Virus record (IMG/VR): IMGVR_UViG_2534682157_000015
Strand: one strand, 5' to 3'
From: a virus
Taxonomy: Duplodnaviria; Heunggongvirae; Uroviricota; Caudoviricetes
DNA: 38,068 bases
The notes below the pieces were generated by a model. It searched no databases. It saw only the letters and a list, made by a program, of their open reading frames with translations, and was not told where the DNA came from. The first letter of the stretch is position 1; every line of letters starts with the position of its first letter. Made by a program: the position numbers and the translations under genes. Positions 1 to 36,688 of the stretch are shown piece after piece.

Positions 1-1053
1 TTACGGGGTAATGCCAACCGCTGCCGCCACTTTGTCGCCACTTGGCAGCGTTGCCAGAGGATTGAAACGGAGCGCCGTTTCCAGATGATCCGGTGCCAGA
101 TGTGCGTAACGCATAGTCATTTTTATATCGTGGTGTCCGAGAATTTTTTGTAAGGCCAGAATGTTTCCACCCGACATCATGAAGTGCGCCGCAAACGTAT
201 GGCGCAGAACGTGTGTGAGTTGACCGCGAGGGAGCACGATAGACGTTTTTTCCATCACGGATAAAAATTGAAAATAGCAGTCTGTGAAGAAATTGAACCC
301 ATCAAGCGCCATGATCTCTTCGTAAAGCTCTTTACTGATAGGGATGCTTCTGTTTTTCTTCCCCTTCGTTCTGACAAAGGTAATTCGGTATTTGGTCACC
401 TGTGAGCGGGTAAGATTTACGGCTTCACGCCAGCGTGCGCCTGTGCTTAAGCATATCTTAACTACCAGTGCCAGAATTGGGTCCTGACGTTTGCAATCAG
501 CCAGCAATTCAACAATCTGCTCATGGGTAAGCCATGCTATCTCTTTTTCTGCGATGGTGAATTTTCGCATGTTCTCCAGTGGGTTCGGATACGACCATTC
601 GCCCAGACGGGATAGTTCGCTAAAAACACTACTTAGATAGCTTTGCTCCAGGTTAATGGTGACCGGGCTTGCTCCTTTCTTCCATTTCTCGCTGAAGTAG
701 ATCTCGCCTGTCAGGCGTTTATCTCGATAGTGGGCAAACATTTTAGAGGTGAGATCGGTTGCAAGAGGATTGCCTAGGGCGTCAACCATCAGCAGCAATT
801 TGTCATAGACATGCTGTCCAGCAGTCAGAGATTTACCATGTAGTTTGAACCATAGCTCAACCACGTCTTTCAGGGTTCGACGATCCACTGATTCGCCCAG
901 CCAGGGCTTTGATTCGGTTTCTTCCATCGTGTGACGCTCAAAAGCCAGAGCTTCGCCTTTGGTGGCGAATTGTTTACGCACACGACGCCCACTTCGTCCG
1001 GCGGGGTAACATTCGCAAAGCCATTTCCCTGTGGTGAGTTTTCGTACTGCCAT
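1..1053 (-). CDS. int: Tyrosine integrase (P2 Int-like), 350 aa
   Basis: Translation starts MAVRKL (P2 Int-like N-terminus) with GGAGG-like SD upstream; catalytic-box-like segments LSTGARWREA, HVLRHTFAAH, MRYAHLAP; ORF-track start at 1209 is likely an upstream over-extension. Confidence 0.9.
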   Translation of the reverse strand: MAVRKLTTGKWLCECYPAGRSGRRVRKQFATKGEALAFERHTMEETESKPWLGESVDRRTLKDVVELWFKLHGKSLTAGQHVYDKLLLMVDALGNPLATDLTSKMFAHYRDKRLTGEIYFSEKWKKGASPVTINLEQSYLSSVFSELSRLGEWSYPNPLENMRKFTIAEKEIAWLTHEQIVELLADCKRQDPILALVVKICLSTGARWREAVNLTRSQVTKYRITFVRTKGKKNRSIPISKELYEEIMALDGFNFFTDCYFQFLSVMEKTSIVLPRGQLTHVLRHTFAAHFMMSGGNILALQKILGHHDIKMTMRYAHLAPDHLETALRFNPLATLPSGDKVAAAVGITP

Positions 1054-1241
1054 AAAAAATGCCCTCCAGTAGAGAGCATTTTTACTGTATGTATAACCAG
1101 TATCAATGTATGAAATCCTACGACCATACATCTCACTGAAGCCATAATGAAGTTGGCTATTCTTTTTGCTATGTGAGCATGTAACTTTTGCGGTTAACCT
1201 GCGGCTCATTTTTATTTTAGACGCAGATATAAAAGCAAAAG

Positions 1242-5086: not shown

Positions 5087-7497
5087 GTCATGCCGATATG
5101 AACAACTGCTGCGGCTTTAACGAAGCTGCCGCATCGTTCTCATGGAACAGCCCGAAAAAGGCCATTAACCCTTATCTGGACCCGGCGGAAGTTGCGCCGG
5201 TTTCTGCGCTTTCAAACCTGATCACTCTGTACGCTACCGATAACGAGCAGGAACAACTGCGCCGCGAGGCACTGAGTGATCAGGTCTGGGAGCGTTATTT
5301 CTTTAATGAATCCCGTGATCCTGTCCAACGCGAAATGGAGCAGGATAAGCTCATTAGCCGGGCAAAGATGGCGCATGAGCAGCAGCGTTTTAATCCAGAC
5401 ATGGTCATTCTGGCGGACGTCAACGCCCAGCCTTCCCATATCAGCAAGCCGCTGATGCAACGTATTGAATATTTCAGCAGCCTGGGCAGGCCAAAGGCTT
5501 ATTCCCGCTATTTGCGTGAGACGATTAAGCCATGTCTGGAACGACTGGAGCATGTACGCGACAGCCAGCTATCTGCATCTTTTCGTTTTATGGCAAGCCA
5601 TGAAGGGCTGGACGGCCTGCTGATCCTGCCTGAAATGAGTCAGGATCAGGTGAAACGCCTGTCTACTCTTGTCGCTGCGCATATGAGTATGTGTCTTGAT
5701 GCCGCTTGTGGTGATTTGTACGCCTCCGATGATGTTAAGCCAGAAGAAATCCGCAAGACATGGGAAAAGGTGGCAGCAGAAACCCTGCGACTGGATGTCA
5801 TACCGCCTGCGTTTGAGCAACTCCGCCGGAAAAGAAACCGCCGCAAACCTGTGCCTTATGAACTCATTCCGGGTTCGCTGGCGCGTATGCTGTGCGCCGA
5901 CTGGTGGTATCGGAAATTATGGAAGATGCGTTGCGAATGGCGGGAAGAGCAGTTGCGTGCTGTCTGCCTGGTCAGCAAAAAAGCATCTCCCTATGTCAGC
6001 TATGAAGCCGTGATGCATAAACGTGAGCAGCGCCGTAAGTCGCTGGAGTTTTTCCGTTCTCATGAACTGGTGAACGAAGACGGCGACACGCTGAACATGG
6101 AGGATGTGGTAAACGCCAGCAGCAGCAACCCGGCGCATCGCCGCAACGAGATGATGGCCTGTGTTAAAGGCCTGGAGCTTATCGCGGAAATGCGTGGTGA
6201 CTGCGCCGTTTTCTACACCATCACCTGTCCGTCACGTTTCCATTCCACGCTAAATAACGGCAGGCCAAACCCGACCTGGACCAACGCGACAGTAAGACAA
6301 AGCAGCGATTATCTGGTCGGCATGTTTGCTGCATTTCGTAAGGCTATGCACAAAGCCGGGTTGCGCTGGTATGGCGTGCGGGTGGCTGAGCCGCATCATG
6401 ACGGCACAGTTCACTGGCACCTGTTGTGTTTCATGCGCAAAAAAGACCGCCGTGCCATCACTGCATTACTGCGTAAGTTTGCCATCCGTGAAGACCGCGA
6501 GGAGCTGGGCAATAACACTGGGCCGCGCTTTAAGTCTGAGTTGATTAACCCGCGCAAAGGAACGCCGACAAGCTACATCGCGAAATATATCAGTAAGAAC
6601 ATTGACGGTCGTGGTCTGGCTGGCGAGATCAGCAAGGAAACGGGTAAATCTCTGCGTGATAACGCTGAATACGTGAATGCGTGGGCGTCTCTGCATCGTG
6701 TTCAGCAATTCCGCTTCTTTGGTATTCCGGGGCGTCAGGCTTACCGTGAACTTCGCTTGCTGGCTGGTCAGGCGGCAAGGCAACAGGGTGACAAAAAAGC
6801 AGGTGCGCCGGTACTGGATAACCCGCGTCTTGATGCCATTCTGGCTGCTGCTGATGCTGGTTGTTTTGCCACCTACATCATGAAGCAGGGCGGCGTACTG
6901 GTTCCCCGTAAATATCACCTCATCAGAACCGCTTATGAAATCAACAAAGAGCCGACCGCCTATGGCGATCACGGCATTCGTATTTATGGCATCTGGTCAC
7001 CCATTGCAGAGGGCAAGATCTGCACTCATGCAGTGAAGTGGAAAATGGTTCGTAAAGCCGTTGACGTTCAGGAGGCGGCAGCCGACCAGGGCGCTTGCGC
7101 CCCTTGGACTCGTGGCAATAACTGTCCCCTTGCTGAAAATTTGAACCAACAGGAGAAAGATAAATCAGCAGATGGGGACCCCAGAACGGACATTACCAGC
7201 ATGGATGACAAGGAGTTGCACGATTTCCTGCACAGTATGAGCAAAAAAGAGCGCCGAGAACTGGCAGCAAGGTTACGCCTGGTTAAACCGATACGGCGTA
7301 AAGACTACCAACAGCGAATTACAGACCATCAGCGACTGCAGCTCGTCTATGAGCTGAAGTCCAGAGGATTTGATGGTAGCGAGAAAGAGGTCGATTTACT
7401 CCTTCGCGGCGGCAGTATTCCGTCAGGAGCAGGCCTGCGTATCTTCTATCGGAACCAGCGTTTGCGGGAAGATGATAAGTGGCGGAACCTGTATTAA
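5083..7497 (+). CDS. A: Replication initiation endonuclease A (rolling-circle HUH Rep, P2 gpA-like), 804 aa
   Basis: HUH-like HWHLL motif and paired tyrosines YIAKYISK; size and position as P2/186 A. Confidence 0.9.
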
Positions 7498-7590
7498 TTA
7501 CGCGGGTTAACAATTCGTGCTCTTAATAATACCCGGCATATCAGGCTGATGAACGTAAAAAACGTTTTACATCAGTAAGATTATTATATA

Positions 7591-7606
7591 CTGTAAATAT
7601 AAACAG
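7591..7606. promoter_or_regulatory. LexA box (SOS operator) CTGTAAATATAAACAG
   Basis: Perfect CTGT-N8-ACAG with AT-rich spacer, 44 nt upstream of the ATG at 7650. Confidence 0.7.
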
Positions 7607-7649
7607 TGGATATGTATACAGTATTGCTTGTGGTGTCATAGGAGGAAAA

Positions 7650-7838
7650 ATGCAGGACTATTTTTTGGAGTCTTTGAAGCTCCAGCGCATTGATTTTTTT
7701 CTTAAGCTTGTAGCGGCTAGTGAGTGTAGTGATGAAGAGAAGGGGCTGGCTCTGCAGTGGGTTTCTGAATTGACTGATGAACTCATGGCAAAAATCAGAA
7801 CTCACGAATACAACCGCTCAATGGATGTCATCAGTTGA
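7650..7838 (+). CDS. Small protein downstream of LexA box; possible N-terminal part of a Tum-like antirepressor, 62 aa
   Basis: GGAGG SD; position matches the SOS-controlled tum locus of 186; continues into the DinI-like frame if an A5 run (7790-7794) is read as A4. Confidence 0.4.
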   Translation: MQDYFLESLKLQRIDFFLKLVAASECSDEEKGLALQWVSELTDELMAKIRTHEYNRSMDVIS

Positions 7839-7848
7839 GGTGACTTTT

Positions 7849-8082
7849 ATGCGCATTGAAATAATGATCGATAAAGAGCAGAAGATTAGCCAGTCTACCC
7901 TGGACGCCCTTGAATCCGAGCTTTACCGCAATCTGCGCCCCCTGTATCCCAAAACGGTAATTCGTATCCGTAAAGGTAGCTCTAACGGTGTGGAACTGAC
8001 CGGACTGCAACTGGACGAAGAAAGAAAACAAGTGATGAAAATTATGCAGAAGGTGTGGGAAGACAACAGCTGGCTGCATTAA
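7849..8082 (+). CDS. DinI-family protein, 77 aa
   Basis: MRIEIMIDKEQ ... C-terminal WEDNSW resembles DinI (MRIEV... WE...W) as recalled; GAGGTG SD. Confidence 0.7.
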   Translation: MRIEIMIDKEQKISQSTLDALESELYRNLRPLYPKTVIRIRKGSSNGVELTGLQLDEERKQVMKIMQKVWEDNSWLH

Positions 8083-8090
8083 GAAACGTT

Positions 8091-8121
8091 GCTGGCGTCA
8101 GTAATTAATTCTGACGCCAGC
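8091..8121. terminator. GC-rich perfect palindrome between convergent operons (possible bidirectional terminator)
   Basis: GCTGGCGTCAG-9nt-CTGACGCCAGC, 11-bp stem; no clean U-tract. Confidence 0.35.
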
Positions 8122-8176
8122 ACGTTGAACAGCAAGTAAGTCAAGGTGTTAGTTAAAAAAACACCTTATAAGCCAT

Positions 8177-8860
8177 CTATGATTGAAGAGCAATCTTTCT
8201 CAACGTATCAAATACAATTTTTGTAAAATTATTTTCATTTTTAACGTCAATGTAAGCAAGAGCGTTATTAGTAATTTTAAGTTTACCAGAATACTCTAAT
8301 GAATTAACGGAGCAAACAAGTTTGTCAATTCTTATTTTCTTCCCCTCTAATTCTTCTTTATAATATTTTCTAAGGTCACTGCTGCCAATTATTTGCATTT
8401 TAGCTGTAGCGTAATCAGCGACTCTAACTCTAGAAATATCCAGCTGTGTTAGATTTATATTCACATTTGAAGATATTTCGTTGAGCCAGTCCATCGGATT
8501 TATATCAATCTCTTCTAGGCTAACGCCTAAGCCAAGATTTCTGACTAAGGCCTGTGAAAACGGTTTTAAAGTTCGCGGAGGGTTAGTAAGTTGCATTATA
8601 GGAAGAGTATCTAAAGATACACTGAAATTAGTAGTGCGGTATTCGACTCTTTCTACGATAGTTTCGCTTCCGTCAAAATTAGAAACTTGATCGTGATAAA
8701 TAATACGCTCAACAAAGCGTCCATGTGCAGAATCATGACGTATTTTATCAAAAATAAACCCTTTCCCCTTATCCTCGGTAAAAGAATCAAGAGAAAGACG
8801 TTTAACAGCTTTTTCAAATTCAAGCCGTATGTTTAATTTGAGCCACTTAACCTTCTTCAT
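8177..8860 (-). CDS. Hypothetical protein, third gene of accessory operon (227 aa)
   Basis: Start lies 14 nt inside the 3' end of the previous gene; no family recognised. Confidence 0.6.
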   Translation of the reverse strand: MKKVKWLKLNIRLEFEKAVKRLSLDSFTEDKGKGFIFDKIRHDSAHGRFVERIIYHDQVSNFDGSETIVERVEYRTTNFSVSLDTLPIMQLTNPPRTLKPFSQALVRNLGLGVSLEEIDINPMDWLNEISSNVNINLTQLDISRVRVADYATAKMQIIGSSDLRKYYKEELEGKKIRIDKLVCSVNSLEYSGKLKITNNALAYIDVKNENNFTKIVFDTLRKIALQS

Positions 8861-9926
8861 GTTCGTTTACCTCTGGTCCTATTATTATATTATAGGCATT
8901 TTCAGCGGCTGACTCAATTAATTCACTAATATGTCTTTTCTCTTGTGCCGTTGCCGCACGAATTGTCACATTGAATCCGTCTTCTTTTTGATTATTTATC
9001 CCTTTAATTTGATAGGCAAAGTCACAGCAATTTTCAGAGTCTTTGAAAAATGCTTCAACGTTAATTCTGTCACCAACTCCACTTGTCGGTTTTGAAGACC
9101 ATGCGATACGGCCTATATAATAACCTTTCTCGTGTAGTTGAGAAAATATAGGCGAACTATTAACACCTTCACCATTCAAAACAGCTTTCTTGACGAATCC
9201 GGTATCGATTGTTTCTTCTTTGTCTTCATCTTCACTTGCGTCAATATTGCGATTTAATTCTACTTTCGTTACATCATCAGTCTCATAACCATGTAGTCCA
9301 TTCATTAACTCTTGAAAGAACTGGCTTCGCAATGTAGGGTCAGTGATTGCCATTAAAGAAATTTCAAAACGTTCAATAGGCTCAGATTTGATTTTAGACA
9401 GCTCGTTTTGCAGACCCTCAATAACTTTTTTTGCCTCAGGATTCTGTGGCATACGTACTTCAACCTTGTCAACACCAGGGCGAAGTTCTATTATGACATT
9501 CCGTTTATCTATTTGACGCAGAGCGGTTTTAGATAAGTCTATTTCTTCATAGTTATATTCTACTGTCAGAGAACCATCTTTTTTCGCTACGATATTCAAG
9601 CTTTGCCCTTTACTGGGTGAACATGTTTTTTTCAATGCTTCAGCTGCGCTCTTTAATTCGGCCTGATTTGTTGTGGTCTGAAAACTCACACTGGTAATGC
9701 TTTCTCTTGGATCATATGTTTTGACCATCTTTTTTATATGCTCTAATTCATTAAAACCATGGGGGAGTTTTGATATTTCCTCGATAAGTATTTCCTTGTC
9801 GAGTTCTGGTGATAAAAAAACACCTCTATTTAGCAATAATTCATGTAATTTTGCAGGGGTTATTCTTTTATGATGCAAAGCATCATAAATATTCTTGTCA
9901 GTCGCAAAGTATAATTTTTTAGCCAT
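8847..9926 (-). CDS. Hypothetical protein, second gene of accessory operon (359 aa)
   Basis: Start overlaps upstream stop; acidic patch SEDEDKEETID; no family recognised. Confidence 0.6.
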   Translation of the reverse strand: MAKKLYFATDKNIYDALHHKRITPAKLHELLLNRGVFLSPELDKEILIEEISKLPHGFNELEHIKKMVKTYDPRESITSVSFQTTTNQAELKSAAEALKKTCSPSKGQSLNIVAKKDGSLTVEYNYEEIDLSKTALRQIDKRNVIIELRPGVDKVEVRMPQNPEAKKVIEGLQNELSKIKSEPIERFEISLMAITDPTLRSQFFQELMNGLHGYETDDVTKVELNRNIDASEDEDKEETIDTGFVKKAVLNGEGVNSSPIFSQLHEKGYYIGRIAWSSKPTSGVGDRINVEAFFKDSENCCDFAYQIKGINNQKEDGFNVTIRAATAQEKRHISELIESAAENAYNIIIGPEVNEHEEG

Positions 9927-20110: not shown

Positions 20111-20243
20111 CGGTGATCTGAACGCGTTGCTGGATGAAACGGAGGCCGCCTGGGCGGTCTGTGCAGACAAAGTGGACATGATTATTGCGTGTCAGGAGCG
20201 AAACAGTGAACAAACCACAATCCCTGCGCCACGTCCTCAATAA
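19953..20243 (+). CDS. lysC: LysC / Rz1-like outer-membrane lipoprotein spanin, +1 frame overlapping lysB 3' end, 96 aa
   Basis: Lipobox LTLSGC; embedded/overlapping frame typical of spanin pairs. Confidence 0.6.
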   Translation: MRTRIYAAGLILLCLLTLSGCGNVRHSPEVQLTVSGCPRVTPCRLDQATPRTNGDLNALLDETEAAWAVCADKVDMIIACQERNSEQTTIPAPRPQ

Positions 20244-20637
20244 AGCGGTGCCTTATGTCCGCAATAACCCGGACAAACTGCATCTGTTTGTGGATAACGG
20301 TTCGCTGGTTGCCACGGGGGCCAGTTCCATGTCGTGGGAGTACCGTTACACCCTGAACGCGGTGATTGAGAATTTCAGCGGCGACCAGAATCTGCTGATG
20401 GCCCCGGTTTTGCTGTGGTTGCGGGATAACCAGCCCGATGCCATCAATAACCCGGCGTTACGGGAAAAACTATTTACCTTTGAGGTGGATATTCTGCGCA
20501 ACGATGTCTGTGATATCAGCCTTAACCTGCAACTGACGGAACGTGTGCTGGTCAGCACTGACGGCAGTGTGTCGAGCGTTGAAGCTGTAGCAGAACCCGA
20601 TGAACCTGAAGAAATGTGGACGGTGAAACGTGGCTGA
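20206..20637 (+). CDS. R: Tail completion protein (P2 gpR-like), about 143 aa
   Basis: GTG at 20206 in frame with track ORF (TTG 20185); position before S. Confidence 0.7.
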   Translation: MNKPQSLRHVLNKAVPYVRNNPDKLHLFVDNGSLVATGASSMSWEYRYTLNAVIENFSGDQNLLMAPVLLWLRDNQPDAINNPALREKLFTFEVDILRNDVCDISLNLQLTERVLVSTDGSVSSVEAVAEPDEPEEMWTVKRG

Positions 20638-21076
20638 ACTGCAGAAGGTGGACGACTGGCTTAGTGCCTTACTGGCGAATCTGGAACCAGTCGCAAGAAG
20701 CCGCATGATGCGCCAGCTGGCGCAGGAACTGCGCCGGACACAGCAGCAGAATATCAGGATGCAGCGCAATCCAGATGGCAGCAGTTATGAACCGCGCAAG
20801 GTTACGGCGCGCAGTAAAAAAGGCCGCATCAAACGTCAGATGTTTGCAAAGCTGCGCACCACCAAATACCTGAAAACCGCCGCCAGCGCCGACTCTGCCA
20901 GCGTACAGTTTGAAAGTAAGGTGCAGCGCATTGCCCGCGTTCACCATTATGGCCTGCGCGATCGCGTCAGCCGCAAAGGACCGGAAGTGCGTTACGCAGA
21001 GCGTCGTTTGTTGGGTCTTAATGGTGAGTCTTACGTTCTAACTCTTGATATATTGAATAGATTCCTTCTGTCTTGA
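20630..21076 (+). CDS. S: Tail completion protein (P2 gpS-like), 148 aa; last codons run into AT-rich inserted DNA
   Basis: GTG start overlapping R stop; composition changes abruptly near 21030. Confidence 0.75.
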   Translation: MAELQKVDDWLSALLANLEPVARSRMMRQLAQELRRTQQQNIRMQRNPDGSSYEPRKVTARSKKGRIKRQMFAKLRTTKYLKTAASADSASVQFESKVQRIARVHHYGLRDRVSRKGPEVRYAERRLLGLNGESYVLTLDILNRFLLS

Positions 21077-21434
21077 ATTCACCATATGCCCAATGAATTG
21101 CATTTTTTTGTTCAGTCAGAATATATTTCCTAACTTTTTTAGAATAGTGAATGGTCAGTATAAAACCCAAAGAAATCCATAATAGAATAAATATGGTTGT
21201 TGGGGCAAAGGAATAGATAAAGAATTTGTCTTTAACGAAATTCTTGACTTCTTCATCAATGTAAGCATTCCCTTCATCAGTGGTTAGTAGTTTACAAAGA
21301 ATTTCTTTATGCTCGATAGTTAATGATTTGTACTTCTCTGTACTGGCAGAGGATGACTCTTCGCAATCATCCTTTGATATTTCCCAATCAGGAGTGGTTA
21401 ATATTGTAGCTGCAGTCGCCAGTTTTTTTGACAT
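21018..21434 (-). CDS. Hypothetical protein with one predicted transmembrane helix (138 aa from ATG 21434; track ORF extends to TTG 21536)
   Basis: AT-rich ORF between S and V; hydrophobic segment FFIYSFAPTTIFILLWISLGFILTI. Confidence 0.45.
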   Translation of the reverse strand: MSKKLATAATILTTPDWEISKDDCEESSSASTEKYKSLTIEHKEILCKLLTTDEGNAYIDEEVKNFVKDKFFIYSFAPTTIFILLWISLGFILTIHYSKKVRKYILTEQKNAIHWAYGEFKTEGIYSIYQELERKTHH

Positions 21435-21598
21435 ATAAAATGATTCACCGGATTTTATCCAATAAAGCAATGTGCTATTTGGTGGGGTTCTAATGGCTTG
21501 GATGAAAACTGGACCAAAAATATAAATTGCACACAAAAAAAGAAGTGAAAAGAGAACCGTGATTGATTTTTCAGCCCATGTGATAGTAGGCAGCCTTT

Positions 21599-21823
21599 TT
21601 AATGATATTCGTATAAGAAAAAATTTAATATAAACGCAGGTATTCCTGATTTTTTCAAAATTACATCATGAGATTTTCTATATTTGAATAGTGCTCTTAT
21701 AACTATCGTCACCAAAGTTATAACAGCTCCAATAATGGAAATCCATGCGGCAAGTGCCGCTGCCGGGGTGTTTAAAAATTCAGCATTAAATATATTAGAA
21801 CTTATTGGATTCATAACACTCAT
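21599..21823 (-). CDS. Small hypothetical membrane protein, 74 aa
   Basis: GGTGG SD 5 nt before ATG; hydrophobic segment AALAAWISIIGAVITLVTIVI; AT-rich. Confidence 0.45.
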   Translation of the reverse strand: MSVMNPISSNIFNAEFLNTPAAALAAWISIIGAVITLVTIVIRALFKYRKSHDVILKKSGIPAFILNFFLYEYH

Positions 21824-21862
21824 TTATCCACCTATTGGTTGTTTTTTATCCTTTTATCAATT

Positions 21863-21880
21863 TGTACCATCGATACCACA
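21863..21880 (+). promoter_or_regulatory. Late-promoter activator dyad TGT-N12-ACA upstream of V, with TATAAA -10-like element downstream
   Basis: TGTaccatcgataccACA about 47 nt upstream of V ATG. Confidence 0.5.
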
Positions 21881-21926
21881 ATTTGCAAGAAGTTATAAAC
21901 AAGTTTTCAGCTGTCATCATATATCT

Positions 21927-22505
21927 ATGAACGCACAACTAACCGAAATCATGCGCCTTATCACCAATCTGATCCGCATAGGTGTAGTCACCGAAGTGGA
22001 CCGGGAAAACTGGCTTTGTCGGGTGAAAACGGGCGACCTTGAAACCAACTGGATTAACTGGCTGACGCTGCGCGCGGGTAATGCCCGCACATGGTGGCGA
22101 CCATCGGAAGGTGAGCAGGTGGTACTGCTGAGTCTGGGCGGCAATCTGGAAACAGCCTTTGCTTTGCCCGCCATCTATTCTAATCAGTTTGCACCGCCGT
22201 CGCAGTCGGTGGACGCCTGTGTGACAGAACATCCTGATGGTGGCTGGTTTGAATACGAACCCACTACCGGGCGCTGGTATGTCAGGGGCATCAAATCCAT
22301 GGTCATTGAGGCTGCCGACAACATCACCCTGAAAACCAGTGAGTTTGTGCTGGAGGCTGACCGCACGCGTATTAACAGCGAAGTAGTGATCAATGGTGGC
22401 GTTACCCAGGGCGGCGGTGCAATGAGTTCTAACGGAATTGTGGTTGATGCACATCAGCATACTGGCGTCCTGAAAGGCGGCGACACAACCGGAGGCCCGG
22501 TATGA
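21927..22505 (+). CDS. V: Baseplate spike protein (P2 gpV-like), 192 aa
   Basis: ATG at 21927 in frame with track ORF 21684-22505; position and size as P2 V. Confidence 0.85.
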   Translation: MNAQLTEIMRLITNLIRIGVVTEVDRENWLCRVKTGDLETNWINWLTLRAGNARTWWRPSEGEQVVLLSLGGNLETAFALPAIYSNQFAPPSQSVDACVTEHPDGGWFEYEPTTGRWYVRGIKSMVIEAADNITLKTSEFVLEADRTRINSEVVINGGVTQGGGAMSSNGIVVDAHQHTGVLKGGDTTGGPV

Positions 22506-23756: not shown

Positions 23757-24354
23757 TCTGCTGCCACCAGGTTCAACGCTACTGGAGCGCCGACTGGCGC
23801 AGACCTGTAGCGGGATTTCTGATCTGCAGGTGCCGCTGCGTGACTTGTGGAATCCGGCAACCTGTCCGGTCAGTTTCCTGCCTTATCTCGCTTGGGCGTT
23901 CTCTGTGGATCGCTGGGACGAGGGCTGGACTGAAAGCGTCAAACGTCAGGTGGTGAAGGATGCTTTTTATATTCATCAGAATAAAGGAACCACCAGTGCC
24001 GTGCGGCGGGTGGTGGAACCGTTCGGATTCCTGATCCGCATTATTGAGTGGTGGCAGACCGGCGAAACACCGGGCACGTTTCGCCTGGATATCGGCGTGC
24101 AGGATCAGGGCATCACTGAAGATACCTATCTGGAACTTGAGCGACTGATAAGCGATGCCAAACCATGTAGCCGTCACATGATCGGCATGTCCATCAATCT
24201 GCAGACCAGCGGCCCGCATTGGGTGGGAGCCGCCAGCTATCTTGGCGAAGAAATCACGATCTATCCGTATATCAACGAAACAATTATTTCCGGCGGCACC
24301 GCGCATGAAGGCGGGGCGGTCCATGTTATTGACACAATGAGAGTGAATCCATGA
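23749..24354 (+). CDS. I: Baseplate protein (P2 gpI-like), 201 aa
   Basis: Overlaps J stop and H start; position as P2 I. Confidence 0.85.
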   Translation: MNSLLPPGSTLLERRLAQTCSGISDLQVPLRDLWNPATCPVSFLPYLAWAFSVDRWDEGWTESVKRQVVKDAFYIHQNKGTTSAVRRVVEPFGFLIRIIEWWQTGETPGTFRLDIGVQDQGITEDTYLELERLISDAKPCSRHMIGMSINLQTSGPHWVGAASYLGEEITIYPYINETIISGGTAHEGGAVHVIDTMRVNP

Positions 24355-25733
24355 GCACAAAATTTTATACCCTGCTGACGGATATTGGCGCGGCGAAACT
24401 TGCCAGCGCCGCCGCGCTCGGTGTGCCTTTAAAAATTACCCATATGGCGGTCGGCGATGGCGGCGGAACATTACCAACGCCGGACGCAAAGCAGACAGCA
24501 CTGGTAAATGAGAAACGCCGGGCTGCGCTGAATATGCTCTATATCGACCCGCAGAACAGCAGCCAGATTATTGCTGAACAGGTGATCCCTGAAAACGAGG
24601 GCGGTTGGTGGATACGTGAAGTGGGCTTGTTTGATGAGTCCGGGGCATTGATTGCCGTGGGTAACTGCCCGGAAAGCTATAAGCCGCAACTGGCTGAAGG
24701 CAGTGGGCGTACCCAGACCGTGCGCATGGTGCTGATTACCAGCAGTACGGGCAATATCATCCTGAAAATCGACCCTGCTGTAGTGCTGGCAACCCGCAAG
24801 TATGTGGATGACAAGGCACTGGAGCTGAAGGTGTACGTGGATGACCTGATAGCAAAACATCTTGCCGCACTGGACCTGCATTCACAGTATGCACCCAAAG
24901 AAAGTCCGACATTTACCGGAACCCCCAAAGCGCCAACGCCAGCGGCGGGGAATAATACCACTCAGCTTGCGACCACCGCATTTGTTCAGGCGGCACTGAC
25001 GGCCCTGATTAATGGTGCGCCAGCCACGCTGAAAGAAATAGCCGCAGCCATTAACAATGACCCGAAATTCAGTACCACCATTAACAATGCGCTGGCACTG
25101 AAAGCGCCGCTGTCGAGTCCGGCACTCACCGGAACGCCAACAGCCCCCACGGCGGCGCAGTCGGTCAACAATACACAGATTGCCACTACGGCTTTTGTGA
25201 AATCGGCGATTGCGGCAATGGTGGGTTCTGCACCTGCGGCACTGGATACACTGAACGAACTGGCGGCGGCACTGGGGAATGATCCGAACTTTGCCACGAC
25301 AATGCTTAATGCGCTGGCAGGTAAACAACCGCTGGACAATACGCTGACTAATTTGAGTGGAAAGGATGTAGCTGGTCTTCTCACATACCTTGGTTTGGGA
25401 GAAGCCAGATATGTCATTCAGCGAGGAGCTAATGTCAATGGTGCATGGATACGCTGGTCAGATGGTGCAATAGAAGTATTTGGAACTGGTGGTTCCAATG
25501 ATAATGGGCTGGCTAAAGTCGTTTATCCAATTGCACTACCTAAGCTTTCACGTTTTATCAGCATAGCGGAAAGAATAAGAACAGATTACGAGGCCACACC
25601 TAATAACGTTCACGTTTCAATGATCGTGGATGACCAGGTCAGTAATACAGGTTTTTATGTCCGCTGCCAGATGTACGACGGAAGACCATCAACAAGTGCT
25701 TTTTCCTGGAGAGTTTATTGTGCGCCTGTTTAA
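24351..25733 (+). CDS. H: Tail fibre protein (P2 gpH-like) in its current orientation; C-terminal part lies inside the invertible segment
   Basis: Ala/Thr-rich repeated segments (TQLATTAFV, TQIATTAFV); recombination site inside the gene at 25378-25403. Confidence 0.85.
   Translation: MSTKFYTLLTDIGAAKLASAAALGVPLKITHMAVGDGGGTLPTPDAKQTALVNEKRRAALNMLYIDPQNSSQIIAEQVIPENEGGWWIREVGLFDESGALIAVGNCPESYKPQLAEGSGRTQTVRMVLITSSTGNIILKIDPAVVLATRKYVDDKALELKVYVDDLIAKHLAALDLHSQYAPKESPTFTGTPKAPTPAAGNNTTQLATTAFVQAALTALINGAPATLKEIAAAINNDPKFSTTINNALALKAPLSSPALTGTPTAPTAAQSVNNTQIATTAFVKSAIAAMVGSAPAALDTLNELAAALGNDPNFATTMLNALAGKQPLDNTLTNLSGKDVAGLLTYLGLGEARYVIQRGANVNGAWIRWSDGAIEVFGTGGSNDNGLAKVVYPIALPKLSRFISIAERIRTDYEATPNNVHVSMIVDDQVSNTGFYVRCQMYDGRPSTSAFSWRVYCAPV
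25378..25403. repeat. Left inversion crossover site (hix/gix/cix-like, 26 bp), inside tail-fibre gene
   Basis: Reverse complement TTCTCCCAAACCAAGGTATGTGAGAA matches right site in 22 of 26 positions. Confidence 0.6.
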
Positions 25734-25917: not shown

Positions 25918-26152
25918 CCCCCGGCGCGGTGCTGGTATCTGCTTCCATCACCGCGTCGATATTACCAACATCATATTCAGTCATTTCCGGTTCCGGTGGT
26001 GCTATAAACTCTCCGTCAGAATAGAACCAACCGACGCCTGCATCTATATGATCAACATTTATAATTTCGCAATTAGAGAATAAATCACCATCTCCATCCC
26101 AGATAATAATATTTTTCACCACGCCATGTTCAATCAGAGCAAAATTACTCAT
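25886..26152 (-). CDS. Putative tail-fibre assembly chaperone of the alternative (inverted) cassette, 88 aa
   Basis: Start overlaps stop of alternative fibre C-terminal ORF; assignment by position only. Confidence 0.35.
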   Translation of the reverse strand: MSNFALIEHGVVKNIIIWDGDGDLFSNCEIINVDHIDAGVGWFYSDGEFIAPPEPEMTEYDVGNIDAVMEADTSTAPGVIWPVPPEMV

Positions 26153-26885
26153 CAGGCATACTCCTCAACAATAACTATTCCCGGGGCACCGTCACCTCCC
26201 GATTGAGCCTCACTTCCAGCAGGTGCGCAGGCTCCGCCTCCGCCAGCACCAAAGCCCTCAGCTTTACCACCACCACGTCCTCTGAATGATGAAGAACTTG
26301 CACCACCTATACCGCCTGAACCTAATGGTGTATCCCCCCCGGTACCACCTGCTACAGCTTTAACAGAGATAACCATTGCTCCTGGTGTTTTTGCACTACA
26401 GCGAAATGCTCTTAGTACAGTGCCGGACGATGTCGGACTGGCACCCCATGAAATACCCTGAATATATGATGTGTTTGCAGATGCTCCCCCCGCGCCACCG
26501 CCTGTACCACCAGGTGCAGTTATCATGGAACCGAAATAAGTTGTGCCACCTTCACTACCTGAATTTCTTCCGGCTCCCCCCCTTTACCTGCAGCACCGAT
26601 AATAACGTTGACTTCGAAATCATTATCAACCTCGAAAAATGCTTCAATAAATGCGCCGCTCAATCCAGCTCCGGCTGTTGCCTGCTGATTTTCTGTTGTT
26701 TCAGGAACCCCACCGCCGCCGCCGCCACCACCAGAGGCAATGACCCTTATCTTTTTTGTCCCTGGTGTTGGGATATATTTTCCAGAACTTTTAAAAATAT
26801 TCGTGTTTAACAAACGACCAGAGAATCTGGCTTCTCCCAAACCAACGTTTATGAAAATGCAGAGATAACGGCTAACTGGCATCAT
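26152..26885 (-). pseudogene. Alternative tail-fibre C-terminal cassette (promoterless, fused to H constant part after inversion), split by a 1-nt frameshift at a G7 run (26576-26582 on plus strand)
   Basis: Begins GLGEARF mirroring GLGEARY at the H crossover; Gly-rich fibre-like sequence; ORFs 26523-26885 and 26152-26526 join if the run is read as G8. Confidence 0.6.
26832..26857. repeat. Right inversion crossover site (hix/gix/cix-like) TTCTCCCAAACCAACGTTTATGAAAA
   Basis: Inverted copy of the left site; lies just upstream of the invertase gene. Confidence 0.6.
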
Positions 26886-26912
26886 CCCCGGTTTTTATTC
26901 AGGGGATTGATC

Positions 26913-27479
26913 ATGCTTATTGGCTATGTACGCGTGTCAACAAATGACCAGAACACCGATTTGCAACGTAATGCACTGAACTGCGCGGGATGTGAGCGGA
27001 TTTTTGAGGACAAAATCAGTGGCACTAAGTCCAACAGACCGGGGCTGAAAAAACTGCTCAGGACACTATCGGCAGGAGACACGCTGGTTGTCTGGAAGCT
27101 GGACAGGTTGGGGCGCAGTATGCGGCATCTTGTTACGTTGATAGAAGAGTTGCGCCAGCGAGGTGTGAATTTCCGAAGCCTGACTGACAGTATTGATACC
27201 AGTACCCCAATGGGCCGTTTCTTTTTTCATGTCATGGGTGCCCTGGCTGAAATGGAACGCGAACTGATAGTTGAACGTACCAGGGCGGGGCTTGCTGCAG
27301 CTCGCGCCAAAGGCAGAGTAGGTGGACGCCGTCCTAAGTTGACTACCGAACAGTGGGCACAGATTGGACGCTTACTCGAGGCCGGAGAATCAAGACAGCG
27401 TATTGCACTGATTTTTGATGTGGGTGTTTCCACAATTTATAGAAAATTTCCGGCAAATAAGAGTAATGAATCCCCCTGA
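26913..27479 (+). CDS. Serine DNA invertase (Hin/Gin/Cin/Pin family), 188 aa
   Basis: N-terminus MLIGYVRVSTNDQNTDLQRNAL and GDTLVVWKLDRLGRS closely resemble Gin/Hin as recalled; ATG at 26913. Confidence 0.9.
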   Translation: MLIGYVRVSTNDQNTDLQRNALNCAGCERIFEDKISGTKSNRPGLKKLLRTLSAGDTLVVWKLDRLGRSMRHLVTLIEELRQRGVNFRSLTDSIDTSTPMGRFFFHVMGALAEMERELIVERTRAGLAAARAKGRVGGRRPKLTTEQWAQIGRLLEAGESRQRIALIFDVGVSTIYRKFPANKSNESP

Positions 27480-35002: not shown

Positions 35003-36688
35003 TTATCCTAATCCTGGCCATACCATGACGATGATTGTCCCTGCCAGCGTCAGCAGGACGTTGGCGATTGCATAGGTGCCCGCATAGCCCAGCGCCGGGA
35101 TGTTACTGCGAGCTGTATCACTGATGATCTCCATTGCCGGCGCGCAGGTACGTGCGCCCATCATTGCGCCGAACAACAGTGCGCGGTTCATTCGCAATAC
35201 ATAAGCACCGAACAAGAAACAGATAACCACGGGCACCAGACTGACAATCAATCCGGCAATCAACATCTGACCGCCAATCGCGCCCAGGCCGTTATTAATA
35301 CCGCTACCGGCGCTCAGACCAACGCCTGCCATAAACACCATCAAGCCGAACTCTTTCACCATGCTTAATGCACCTTGCGGAATGTAACCGAAGGTCGGGT
35401 GGTTAGCACGCATAAAGCCCAGCATAATTCCGGCGAATAACAACCCGGCAGCGTTCCCCATGCCGAAACTGAATGTGCTGAACTGGAAGGTGATCATCCC
35501 GATCATCAGCCCAATAACAAAGAAGGCGCAGAATGCCAGCAGGTCAGTGACCTGGCTGTGAATCGAGATAAAGCCGATGCGATCGGCGATGGTTTTTACG
35601 CGGCGGGCATCGCCGCTGACTTGTAAAACGTCACCTTTGTTAAGCACGACGTTGTCATCTATCGGCATCTCAATCTGGCTACGAATGACGCGGTTAAGGA
35701 AGCAACCGTGATCGGTCAACTTCAGTTGTGCGAGACGTTTACCTACAGCGTTATGGTTTTTAACGACCACTTCTTCAGTGACGATACGCATGTCGAGAAG
35801 GTCGCGATCGAAAACTTCTTTGCCGTTACGGAAGCTGGGATCGAGTCGGGCGTGGGCGTCGGGATAGCCTACCAACGCTATTTCATCGCCCATTTGTAGC
35901 ACGGCATCACCGTCTGGATTTGCCAGAATCCCGTTACGTCGAATACGTTCAATGTAGCAGCCGGTTTGTCGATAAATACCCAGTTCACGCAGATTTTTGC
36001 CGTCGGTCCAGGCCACCAGTTCCGGGCCGACGCGATAGGCGCGGATCACCGGTAAATAAACCTTACGGTTGGCATCAGTGTCCAGGCCACGTTCGCGGGC
36101 GATTTGCTGGGCGCTGGTCTGTAAGTCCTGATGCTGCAATTTCGGCAAGTAACGCGCACCAACAATCAAACTCACCAGACCGATTAAATAGGTTAAGGCA
36201 TACCCGAGGCTCAGATTATCCAGTGCCAGTGAGAGCTGCCTGCTTTCCATGCCGGAATGACGCAGTGTATCGCCAGCACCGACCAGAACCGGTGTCGACG
36301 TCATAGAGCCTGCTAACATACCGGCCGTCAGGCCAATATCCCAGCCAAACAGCTTACCTAACCCTAAGGCGATCACCAGCGCACTGCCAACCATCACCAG
36401 TGCTAACATTAGGTAATTTTTCCCATCGCGAAAAAAAATGGAAAAAAAGTTCGGTCCGGCTTCGACCCCGACGCAGAAAATAAACAGCATAAAGCCAAGA
36501 TTAAGCGCATCGGTGTTAATGCTGAAATGTTGTTGGCCTAATAACAGCGATACGACTAAAACGCCAATGGAATTACCCAGTTGGATCGAACCAAGTCGTA
36601 ACTTTCCGAGACATAGCCCAAGCGCGAGGACCACAAATAATAACAGAATGTAATTCCCATTTAACAATTCGGCGACGTTTATATTCAC
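35003..36688 (-). CDS. ybjL: Putative transport protein YbjL (AAE-type transporter), 561 aa
   Basis: Polytopic membrane protein with central soluble domain; sequence recognised as E. coli YbjL. Confidence 0.85.

Follow-up and report, generated by a model that had tools for sequence, protein, structure and literature searches.

The DNA analysed here is the whole of the 38,068-nucleotide IMG/VR virus record IMGVR_UViG_2534682157_000015 (Caudoviricetes), hereafter the window, and it carries a P2-like prophage in which a block of AT-rich DNA lies between the tail genes S and V. Two short open reading frames (ORFs) on the minus strand of this block are almost certainly the halves of one gene of the DUF6216 family, split by a 1-bp deletion. 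The explanation that best covers the data as a whole, to which we give a little less than even weight, is that the block is a cargo cassette whose gene, frameshifted in this copy, would serve exclusion or defence at the level of the cell envelope. The window thus holds a disrupted member of a catalogued, uncharacterised family at an already known accessory site, and two ORFs that would likely be annotated as "hypothetical" are corrected to one frameshifted gene.

A first-pass annotation of the same DNA had described two minus-strand genes in the block, one for a 74-amino-acid (aa) protein with a single transmembrane (TM) helix and a strong Shine-Dalgarno sequence and the other for a 138-aa protein, or 172 aa from an upstream TTG, with a C-terminal TM helix. 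Both ORFs exist as described: that at 21599-21823 encodes one hydrophobic helix and is preceded by AGGTGGA, and that at 21018-21536 measures 172 aa from the TTG and 138 aa from an internal ATG, with a TM helix at its C-terminal end. They do not, however, represent two genes. Escherichia coli BL21(DE3) (WP_000115390.1, also the REL606 protein; BL21 allele at 885114-885920 of NC_012971.2) and strain H3 each have one 807-nucleotide (nt) minus-strand coding sequence, annotated as "DUF6216 family protein" and 268 aa long, and in a four-way alignment that includes both strains the window is short by one base of a run of seven A (A7) on the plus strand. The window DNA is 99.4% identical to the BL21 gene, which likewise lies between S and V in a P2-like prophage, most of the 111 E. 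coli copies align over 942 bases against 941 in the window, and all 31 close clusters of the family consist of one uninterrupted ORF of 263-268 aa. The elements of the gene in the window are the following.

21018-21823, minus strand: DUF6216-family gene, 806 nt here (807 nt and 268 aa when intact), with a -1 frameshift.
21599-21823, minus strand: N-terminal fragment ORF of 74 aa, comprising residues 1-70, four out-of-frame codons and a stop.
21018-21608, minus strand: rest of the reading frame in the -1 frame, residues 73-268, with the predicted TM2, periplasmic domain, TM3 and cytoplasmic tail.
21618-21623, no strand assigned: homopolymer of six A on the plus strand (T6 in the coding sense), where one base has been deleted; in intact alleles the run is seven long.
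21827-21833, minus strand: Shine-Dalgarno sequence AGGTGGA, read from the sequence, 3 nt upstream of the ATG at 21823-21821.

In intact alleles the T7 tract stands in the coding context AAT TTT TTT C, which specifies Asn67-Phe68-Phe69. The 74-aa ORF retains the predicted periplasmic N-terminus, TM1 (segment 16-48) and the start of a basic loop; the downstream frame contains the 172-aa TTG ORF and has no native start codon. Translation from the native start yields only the 74-aa N-terminal stub, so that the gene is effectively a pseudogene in the window, and this copy is most likely non-functional whatever the role of the gene. The first-pass annotation had added that pairs of small membrane proteins at moron positions are often superinfection-exclusion, abortive-infection or toxin-antitoxin modules. 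The presence of both ORFs, the strong Shine-Dalgarno sequence upstream and the in-frame TTG and ATG of the downstream ORF are what a toxin-antitoxin or two-component exclusion module would offer, yet the relatives with an intact gene all have a single ORF, the split is a 1-bp homopolymer deletion found in about 1-2% of carriers within a T-run that other species do not conserve, and the downstream piece lacks TM1 and the native start. As there is one broken ORF and not two separately conserved genes, the reading as a pair loses its support; it is refuted as the general architecture, and we regard it as extremely improbable even for the window.

Although rare, the T6 allele is real. The exact 74-aa product was found on 19-22 contigs, against at least 1000 contigs for each of two intact alleles, and one of the best-matching 60 complete genomes carries T6; nearly all carriers other than the estimated 1-2%, E. 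coli BL21(DE3) among them, encode the intact 268-aa protein. The allele occurs in independent NCBI assemblies and in metagenomes, on two haplotypes and in backbones whose V genes differ by 7%, and is therefore no single assembly error. The homopolymer is interrupted by a C in all eight copies examined from other species, and the 7-nt tract is specific to the E. coli allele; this lack of conservation points to an ordinary homopolymer mutation rather than a phase-variation device. A phase-variable contingency gene was considered and rejected, the tract being only 7 nt long and unconserved and the off allele, though present on two haplotypes, being confined to some 1-2% of carriers.

The block that carries the gene has well-defined limits. 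Window composition shows a sharp drop in G+C content (GC) from 0.55-0.59 to 0.30-0.37 over approximately 21000-21930, and GC is 33.1% for 21018-21823 as opposed to 57.5% for S and 54.9% for V, the flanks averaging about 56%. Together with the P2-type S and V genes on either side, this bears out the earlier description of AT-rich DNA between these two genes. The block and its surroundings are laid out as follows.

20185-20637: P2-type gene R, left flank.
20630-21076, plus strand: P2-type tail-completion gene S (PF05069, E=2e-38).
21013-21923, no strand assigned: AT-rich cargo cassette at the S-V (orf30) moron site, about 33% GC.
21863-21880, plus strand: TGT-N12-ACA dyad (TGTACCATCGATACCACA), found by pattern search inside the AT-rich block.
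21927-22505, plus strand: P2-type baseplate spike gene V (PF04717 and Apex motif), which bounds the cassette on the right.

S and the DUF6216 gene, which lie on opposite strands, share 59 nt at their 3' ends, a segment that takes in the last 19 codons of S (21018-21076). The final 19-20 or so codons of S therefore lie inside the AT-rich DNA, and the S product is still 148 aa long. Its C-terminus reads ...LNGESYVLTLDILNRFLLS in the window and ...VNDDVEAMTRDMILQWLAG in the block-free phage 500465-1, which served as the empty-site reference (S-V gap of 68 bp), and the form of this C-terminus covaries with the cargo, with the window, BL21 and Buttiauxella on one side and 500465-1, P2 and Cartapus on the other. 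Similarity to 500465-1 fades from about position 21007 and returns 3 bases before the V start codon, limits which indicate that the block replaces the last 19-20 codons of S (from about S codon 127 to the V start codon) and that approximately 130 bp of the empty-site relative have been swapped for the cassette. The proposal that the last codons of S are replaced thus agrees with the difference in the S C-terminus; of the term "insertion" in the first-pass annotation, the accessory nature of the block stands and the literal meaning does not, because relative to 500465-1 the block is a replacement. The ends of the block show no terminal inverted repeats and no target duplication, no transposase accompanies the DUF6216 gene, which is the sole gene of the block, and a scan of the block against Rfam gave no match. 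Rather than a transposon, the block is a cargo cassette of the recombinational kind.

The TGT-N12-ACA dyad is what would be expected, from knowledge of P2, of an Ogr-type activator site for the late V-operon promoter. An equivalent dyad lies upstream of V in 500465-1, and an activator binding site is annotated between orf30 and V in P2; the cassette brings its own copy of the V-operon activator dyad.

The interval between S and V is one of three moron regions of P2-like phages, and phage R18C has a 741-bp ORF there (PMC6823313). P2 itself carries at this site the minus-strand Orf30 (261 aa, 34% GC, annotated as nonessential) and Cartapus an unrelated soluble 176-aa ORF, contents which, with the empty site of 500465-1, confirm that the cargo occupies an accessory position equivalent to that of P2 orf30. 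Variability at this junction, proposed earlier as a check, is pronounced: among 5426 complete E. coli genomes surveyed, 111 have the DUF6216 cargo, 1047 a related V gene and 464 a P2-type orf30, and the cargo was detected by DNA search and tblastn in 0 of 51 related deposited phages, so that it is far from being core to the group. The deposited phage collection likewise contained no DNA or protein match to the E. coli member or to two distant members of the family. Within E. coli, identity over the segment comprising the 3' end of S and the cargo is 99.3-99.8%, against 93-95% for V and differences of 3-7% across V, W and J, and such near-identity in diverged backbones indicates exchange between them. 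The prophage in the window sits between rcdA/ybjJ and ybjL (window 1-1209 and 35003-36688), the same site as the P2-like remnant with retron Eco1 in E. coli B/BL21, and the R-J interval of the window matches contig DAXKRU010000032.1 of GCA_042713495.1 at 100% identity.

Membership in DUF6216 is clear. The intact protein (P0095) scores 44.5 bits against PF19723 and the 172-aa piece 39.7 bits, with a gathering cutoff of 27.3, the latter aligning to profile positions 136-266 of 270. The family is small: at 90% identity it forms 31 clusters, all in Enterobacterales, and at 50% identity a set of 1.84 billion proteins contains 49 representatives of it; it occurs in 5 of 185,579 species genomes. Since DUF6216 has no characterised member, assignment to the family says nothing about function. 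The homology and structure search suggested in the first-pass annotation produced a family and no structural or defence-family relative.

Hydropathy analysis of the intact 268-aa protein gives three TM helices at approximately 19-48, 84-113 and 201-229, or about 20-46, 84-112 and 203-228 on narrower bounds. The N-terminus contains no Lys or Arg, the loop at 47-82 and the C-terminal tail contain eight each, and the domain at 113-202 is net acidic, a distribution which, together with the hydropathy, predicts an N-out/C-in protein in which some 90 aa form a periplasmic domain. The intact product would accordingly be an inner-membrane protein consisting of a short N-terminus in the periplasm, TM1, a basic cytoplasmic loop, TM2, the periplasmic beta/alpha domain, TM3 and a basic cytoplasmic tail. 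An AlphaFold2 (AF2) model (pLDDT 78.8) has three long helices and a domain of four strands and two helices, after which a long helix continues into TM3. In a comparison of 40 members, with identities as low as 15%, invariance is confined to F129, C154 and C177, and the near-invariant P114, L120, A136 and W147 lie in the same domain; all three invariant residues are retained in the downstream frame of the window. As a conserved pair in an outward-facing domain, C154 and C177 probably form a disulfide. Foldseek searches with the AF2 model of the intact protein returned nothing significant from the PDB (best E 1.3) and no match at E<=1e-3 from BFVD, and the DUF6216 protein had no match in PHROGs or NCBIfam. 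The top PDB matches, non-significant at E>1, were mostly claudin/TARP/GSG1L-type tetraspan proteins with an extracellular beta-sheet, which is an architectural echo.

Divergent copies of the gene lie in prophages at successive stages of decay, including the following loci (MAG, metagenome-assembled genome; a prime marks a gene remnant).

L020, Buttiauxella MAG: P2-like prophage still intact, with DUF6216 between S and V.
L008, Serratia rubidaea: patchwork remnant at rpoD-mug, with V', S and fragments of O, P and A.
L004-6, K. aerogenes: patchwork remnant at rpoD-mug, with V' cut by an insertion sequence, S and R'.
L028, K. huaxiensis: ybjL, reverse-transcriptase gene, ogr', D', V', DUF6216, S', R', int', rcdA.
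L012, C. youngae: gene surrounded by degenerate remains of V, S and R.
L018, L007, L010 and L014, in C. sedlakii, Scandinavium and two MAGs: gene standing alone next to ybjL, any phage fragments being tiny.

The DUF6216 ORF keeps its full length of 263-268 aa throughout this series. Nucleotide identity to the window is 84-88% for the cargo of the remnants, compared with 72-77% for the adjacent S/V debris, and Nei-Gojobori ratios of nonsynonymous to synonymous substitution (dN/dS) are 0.15-0.27 for pairs with dS of 0.37-0.9, lone copies included. As judged from these sequence comparisons, the gene is under purifying selection and outlives its prophage. An intact cargo amid decaying phage genes, seen in five or more genera and at two sites in the chromosome, is a strong signature of selection at the level of the host, and from the selection and the survival after prophage decay we infer that the gene benefits the bacterium and not virion production. 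The shrunken P2 remnant of K. huaxiensis (L028, 4895-8989) retains a 257-aa reverse-transcriptase gene as well as the intact DUF6216 gene, a case of accessory genes outlasting the phage.

These data bear directly on the idea that the protein acts in the phage's own cycle, be it in the timing of lysis, as an antiholin or in sparing progeny from injecting their DNA into lysed cells. The position of the gene just downstream of the lysis cassette and within the late region would suit such a role, as would its weak holin-like matches and the presence of P2 Orf30 at the same spot. Nonetheless, the direction of transcription is opposite to that of the late operons, none of the 51 related deposited phages and only a minority of the related prophages carry the gene, and P2 Orf30 is annotated as nonessential; above all, a function in the phage cycle cannot explain a gene that is intact where no phage genes remain. 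We consider this role very improbable.

Information on regulation is available for the intact copy of BL21-AI, where the DUF6216 gene is one of three H-NS peaks detected in the P2-like prophage by chromatin immunoprecipitation sequencing, the other two being the retron Eco1 genes, and where it is up-regulated in a delta-hns delta-stpA background (bioRxiv 10.64898/2026.09.05.749240). The gene has its own Shine-Dalgarno sequence and lies antisense to the phage late operons. With an intact, H-NS-silenced copy present in E. coli B/BL21, its function is directly testable.

Phages and prophages encode, as accessory genes in AT-rich DNA, small inner-membrane exclusion proteins such as P22 SieA, T4 Imm, HK97 gp15 and YmfE ("Kunado") of e14, SieA and YmfE being examples of prophage proteins that prevent DNA entry; the likeness of DUF6216 to these proteins is one of class. 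By this analogy the most likely single role of the intact protein, which we advance tentatively, would be superinfection exclusion through a block on phage DNA entry. The intact protein would reside in the inner membrane with its conserved domain exposed to the periplasm, where this domain would hinder foreign phage DNA from entering, or counter some other attack aimed at the envelope, much as the superinfection-exclusion proteins of prophages do; H-NS would hold expression down, and the benefit would accrue to the host. If the gene does serve exclusion or defence, it would define a new membrane-protein family for prophage-encoded immunity and suggest a role for the long-unexplained orf30 of P2.

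Several points weigh against superinfection exclusion. The topology and the disulfide are predictions. The protein is without sequence or fold similarity to known exclusion or defence proteins in the libraries searched, and PADLOC-DB 2.0 gave no match at E<=10 to the fragments, the intact protein, a distant member or P2 Orf30. After removal of Eco1, deletion of hns and stpA left the plating of T5 and Gostya9 unchanged (bioRxiv 10.64898/2026.09.05.749240), which means that derepressed DUF6216 does not visibly restrict these two phages. A promoter scan upstream of the gene detected no sigma-70 promoter, and no terminator was detected in the block. The literature contained no functional test of any DUF6216 member, only the mention in connection with H-NS, and searches by RefSeq accession, gene name and two guessed locus tags found nothing. 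Finally, retention after prophage decay shows a benefit to the host and not that this benefit is anti-phage in nature.

The last point leads to the possibility of an envelope function unrelated to phages, such as orphan immunity against a membrane-targeting bacteriocin or against a toxin delivered by contact-dependent inhibition or a type VI secretion system, or a lysogenic-conversion factor that changes colonisation or the tolerance of envelope stress. Retention and purifying selection would fit any host-level benefit, a small multi-TM inner-membrane protein with its conserved domain predicted to face outward would be suited to such a task, and the unaltered T5 and Gostya9 plating on derepression and the absence of a defence-database match are in keeping with it. 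The contexts examined, on the other hand, contain no cognate toxin gene nearby, and no immunity family matched significantly, the NCBIfam model TsiR scoring 14.8 bits (E=0.023) where the cutoff is 130. Moreover, shrinking prophages keep DUF6216 beside known defence cargo, and distant members of the family lie near defence-like genes such as AAA_21+DUF4435. On balance we judge a non-phage function unlikely, at about half the weight given to superinfection exclusion.

Less likely again is an abortive-infection effector, which would sense infection, permeabilise or depolarise the inner membrane and kill the cell before phage release. Toxic immunity genes are commonly silenced by H-NS, the protein has several TM helices, and TM1 resembles HP1-type holins weakly and below threshold (PF16080, E=0.005-0.04; PHROG holin, E about 0.05-0.3). 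The PF16080 matches, however, score 17.2 and 14.5 bits with a cutoff of 28.8, and since they cover a single hydrophobic helix they probably reflect composition. In addition, the predicted topology puts the conserved part on the periplasmic side, unlike most abortive-infection sensors, which encounter phage products on the cytoplasmic side, and in the E. coli clade the gene stands alone, with no partner.

Distant members of the family, 235 aa in length, were observed on other mobile islands (L025, Serratia fonticola, 6645-7708; L026 and L027, 6654-7708), with a conserved soluble ORF of 109-114 aa located 11-17 nt upstream. Two copies of the upstream ORF are 59% identical; one of them has a weak NIPSNAP/ABM-like match (E=0.0017, below the cutoff) and the other none. 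The surroundings of the gene in L025 include a resolvase, RadC, a fused AAA_21+DUF4435 (PARIS-like) gene and a P4-type primase. In these distant members the upstream ORF and DUF6216 may represent a two-gene form of the system that is absent from the E. coli clade.

The lit/Kunado (YmfE) locus of e14 resembles the DUF6216 gene in being bound by H-NS and derepressed on deletion of hns and stpA (bioRxiv 10.64898/2026.09.05.749240), but the two proteins have no sequence relationship. Homology between them, prompted by a length of 234 aa common to distant relatives, was examined and rejected, the hmmsearch and phmmer scores being close to zero or negative.

The closest parallel is with P2 Orf30 (NP_046770.1, phrog_2407). 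Both genes lie at the S-V locus in antisense orientation and have similar lengths (261 aa for Orf30 and 268 aa for DUF6216) and composition (34% and 33% GC). The computed topology of Orf30 equals that of DUF6216, with three TM helices (4-31, 106-132 and 219-241), an N-out/C-in arrangement and an outward domain of 88 aa compared with about 90 aa, and Orf30 likewise has two cysteines that are family-invariant, one in a "DC" and the other in an "AC(N)KLL" motif. In the AF2 models the order of elements is alike as well: TM1, cytoplasmic helices, TM2, four beta strands, a short "DC" helix, a helix bearing the other of the invariant Cys residues, and a long helix that includes TM3. Homology at the level of sequence was tried and rejected: tblastn and phrog_2407 gave no match, hmmsearch scores were about zero, and the hhalign probability was 0.2%. 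A domain hidden Markov model scored against 2000 shuffles gave p values of 0.02-0.1, taken as non-significant, a later hhalign run was discarded because a reversed control also scored as "significant", and Orf30 was not among the BFVD fold matches of the DUF6216 model. The two proteins thus share an architectural resemblance, their common ancestry being unproven. That they are highly diverged branches of one old family of S-V cargo, both with three TM helices and a disulfide-bonded periplasmic beta/alpha domain and together making up an uncharacterised class of exclusion determinants that act at the envelope, is a doubtful proposition in our estimation; on this reading the host would domesticate the gene once the prophage dies. 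DUF6216 or Orf30 is present in approximately 575 of the 5426 complete E. coli genomes (111 and 464, respectively), and the copy studied is silenced by H-NS.

Elsewhere in P2-like phages, the genes old, tin and fun(Z) and the cargo of the gpA-gpQ defence hotspot belong to the same class of swappable AT-rich cargo, at another site and with unrelated proteins. The P2 hotspot analysis of Rousset et al. 2022, in the part available, concerns this gpA-gpQ locus, and term searches of a 2026 survey in Nucleic Acids Research yielded nothing on the S-V site or on the genes that flank it; to the extent that these sources can be judged, S-V appears to be an overlooked site beside the gpA-gpQ hotspot. The window has a second and larger AT-rich block at the gpA-gpQ (old/tin) hotspot, at 7500-13000 and with 33-40% GC, which contains the following ORFs.

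7777-8082, plus strand.
8177-8860, minus strand.
8847-9926, minus strand.
9926-10927, minus strand.
11477-12559, plus strand.

Three ORFs of this block match PADLOC Hp3, Hp2 and Hp1 over their full length (E 5e-144 to 5e-245), and there are in addition an M48-peptidase-like and a DinI-like ORF. The hotspot cargo of the window is therefore Hp1-3, a known defence candidate set, which we take to be the system of three hypothetical proteins from P2 hotspots.

Further along the window, a resolvase/invertase gene (26907-27479; PF00239, E=3e-53) adjoins both the tail-fibre gene H (24351-25733) and a pair of minus-strand ORFs at 26152-26885, one of which has a Gly_rich_2 domain, and the region also dips in GC. 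The segment 24351-27479 looks like an invertible tail-fibre segment for host range, of the Gin/Cin type.

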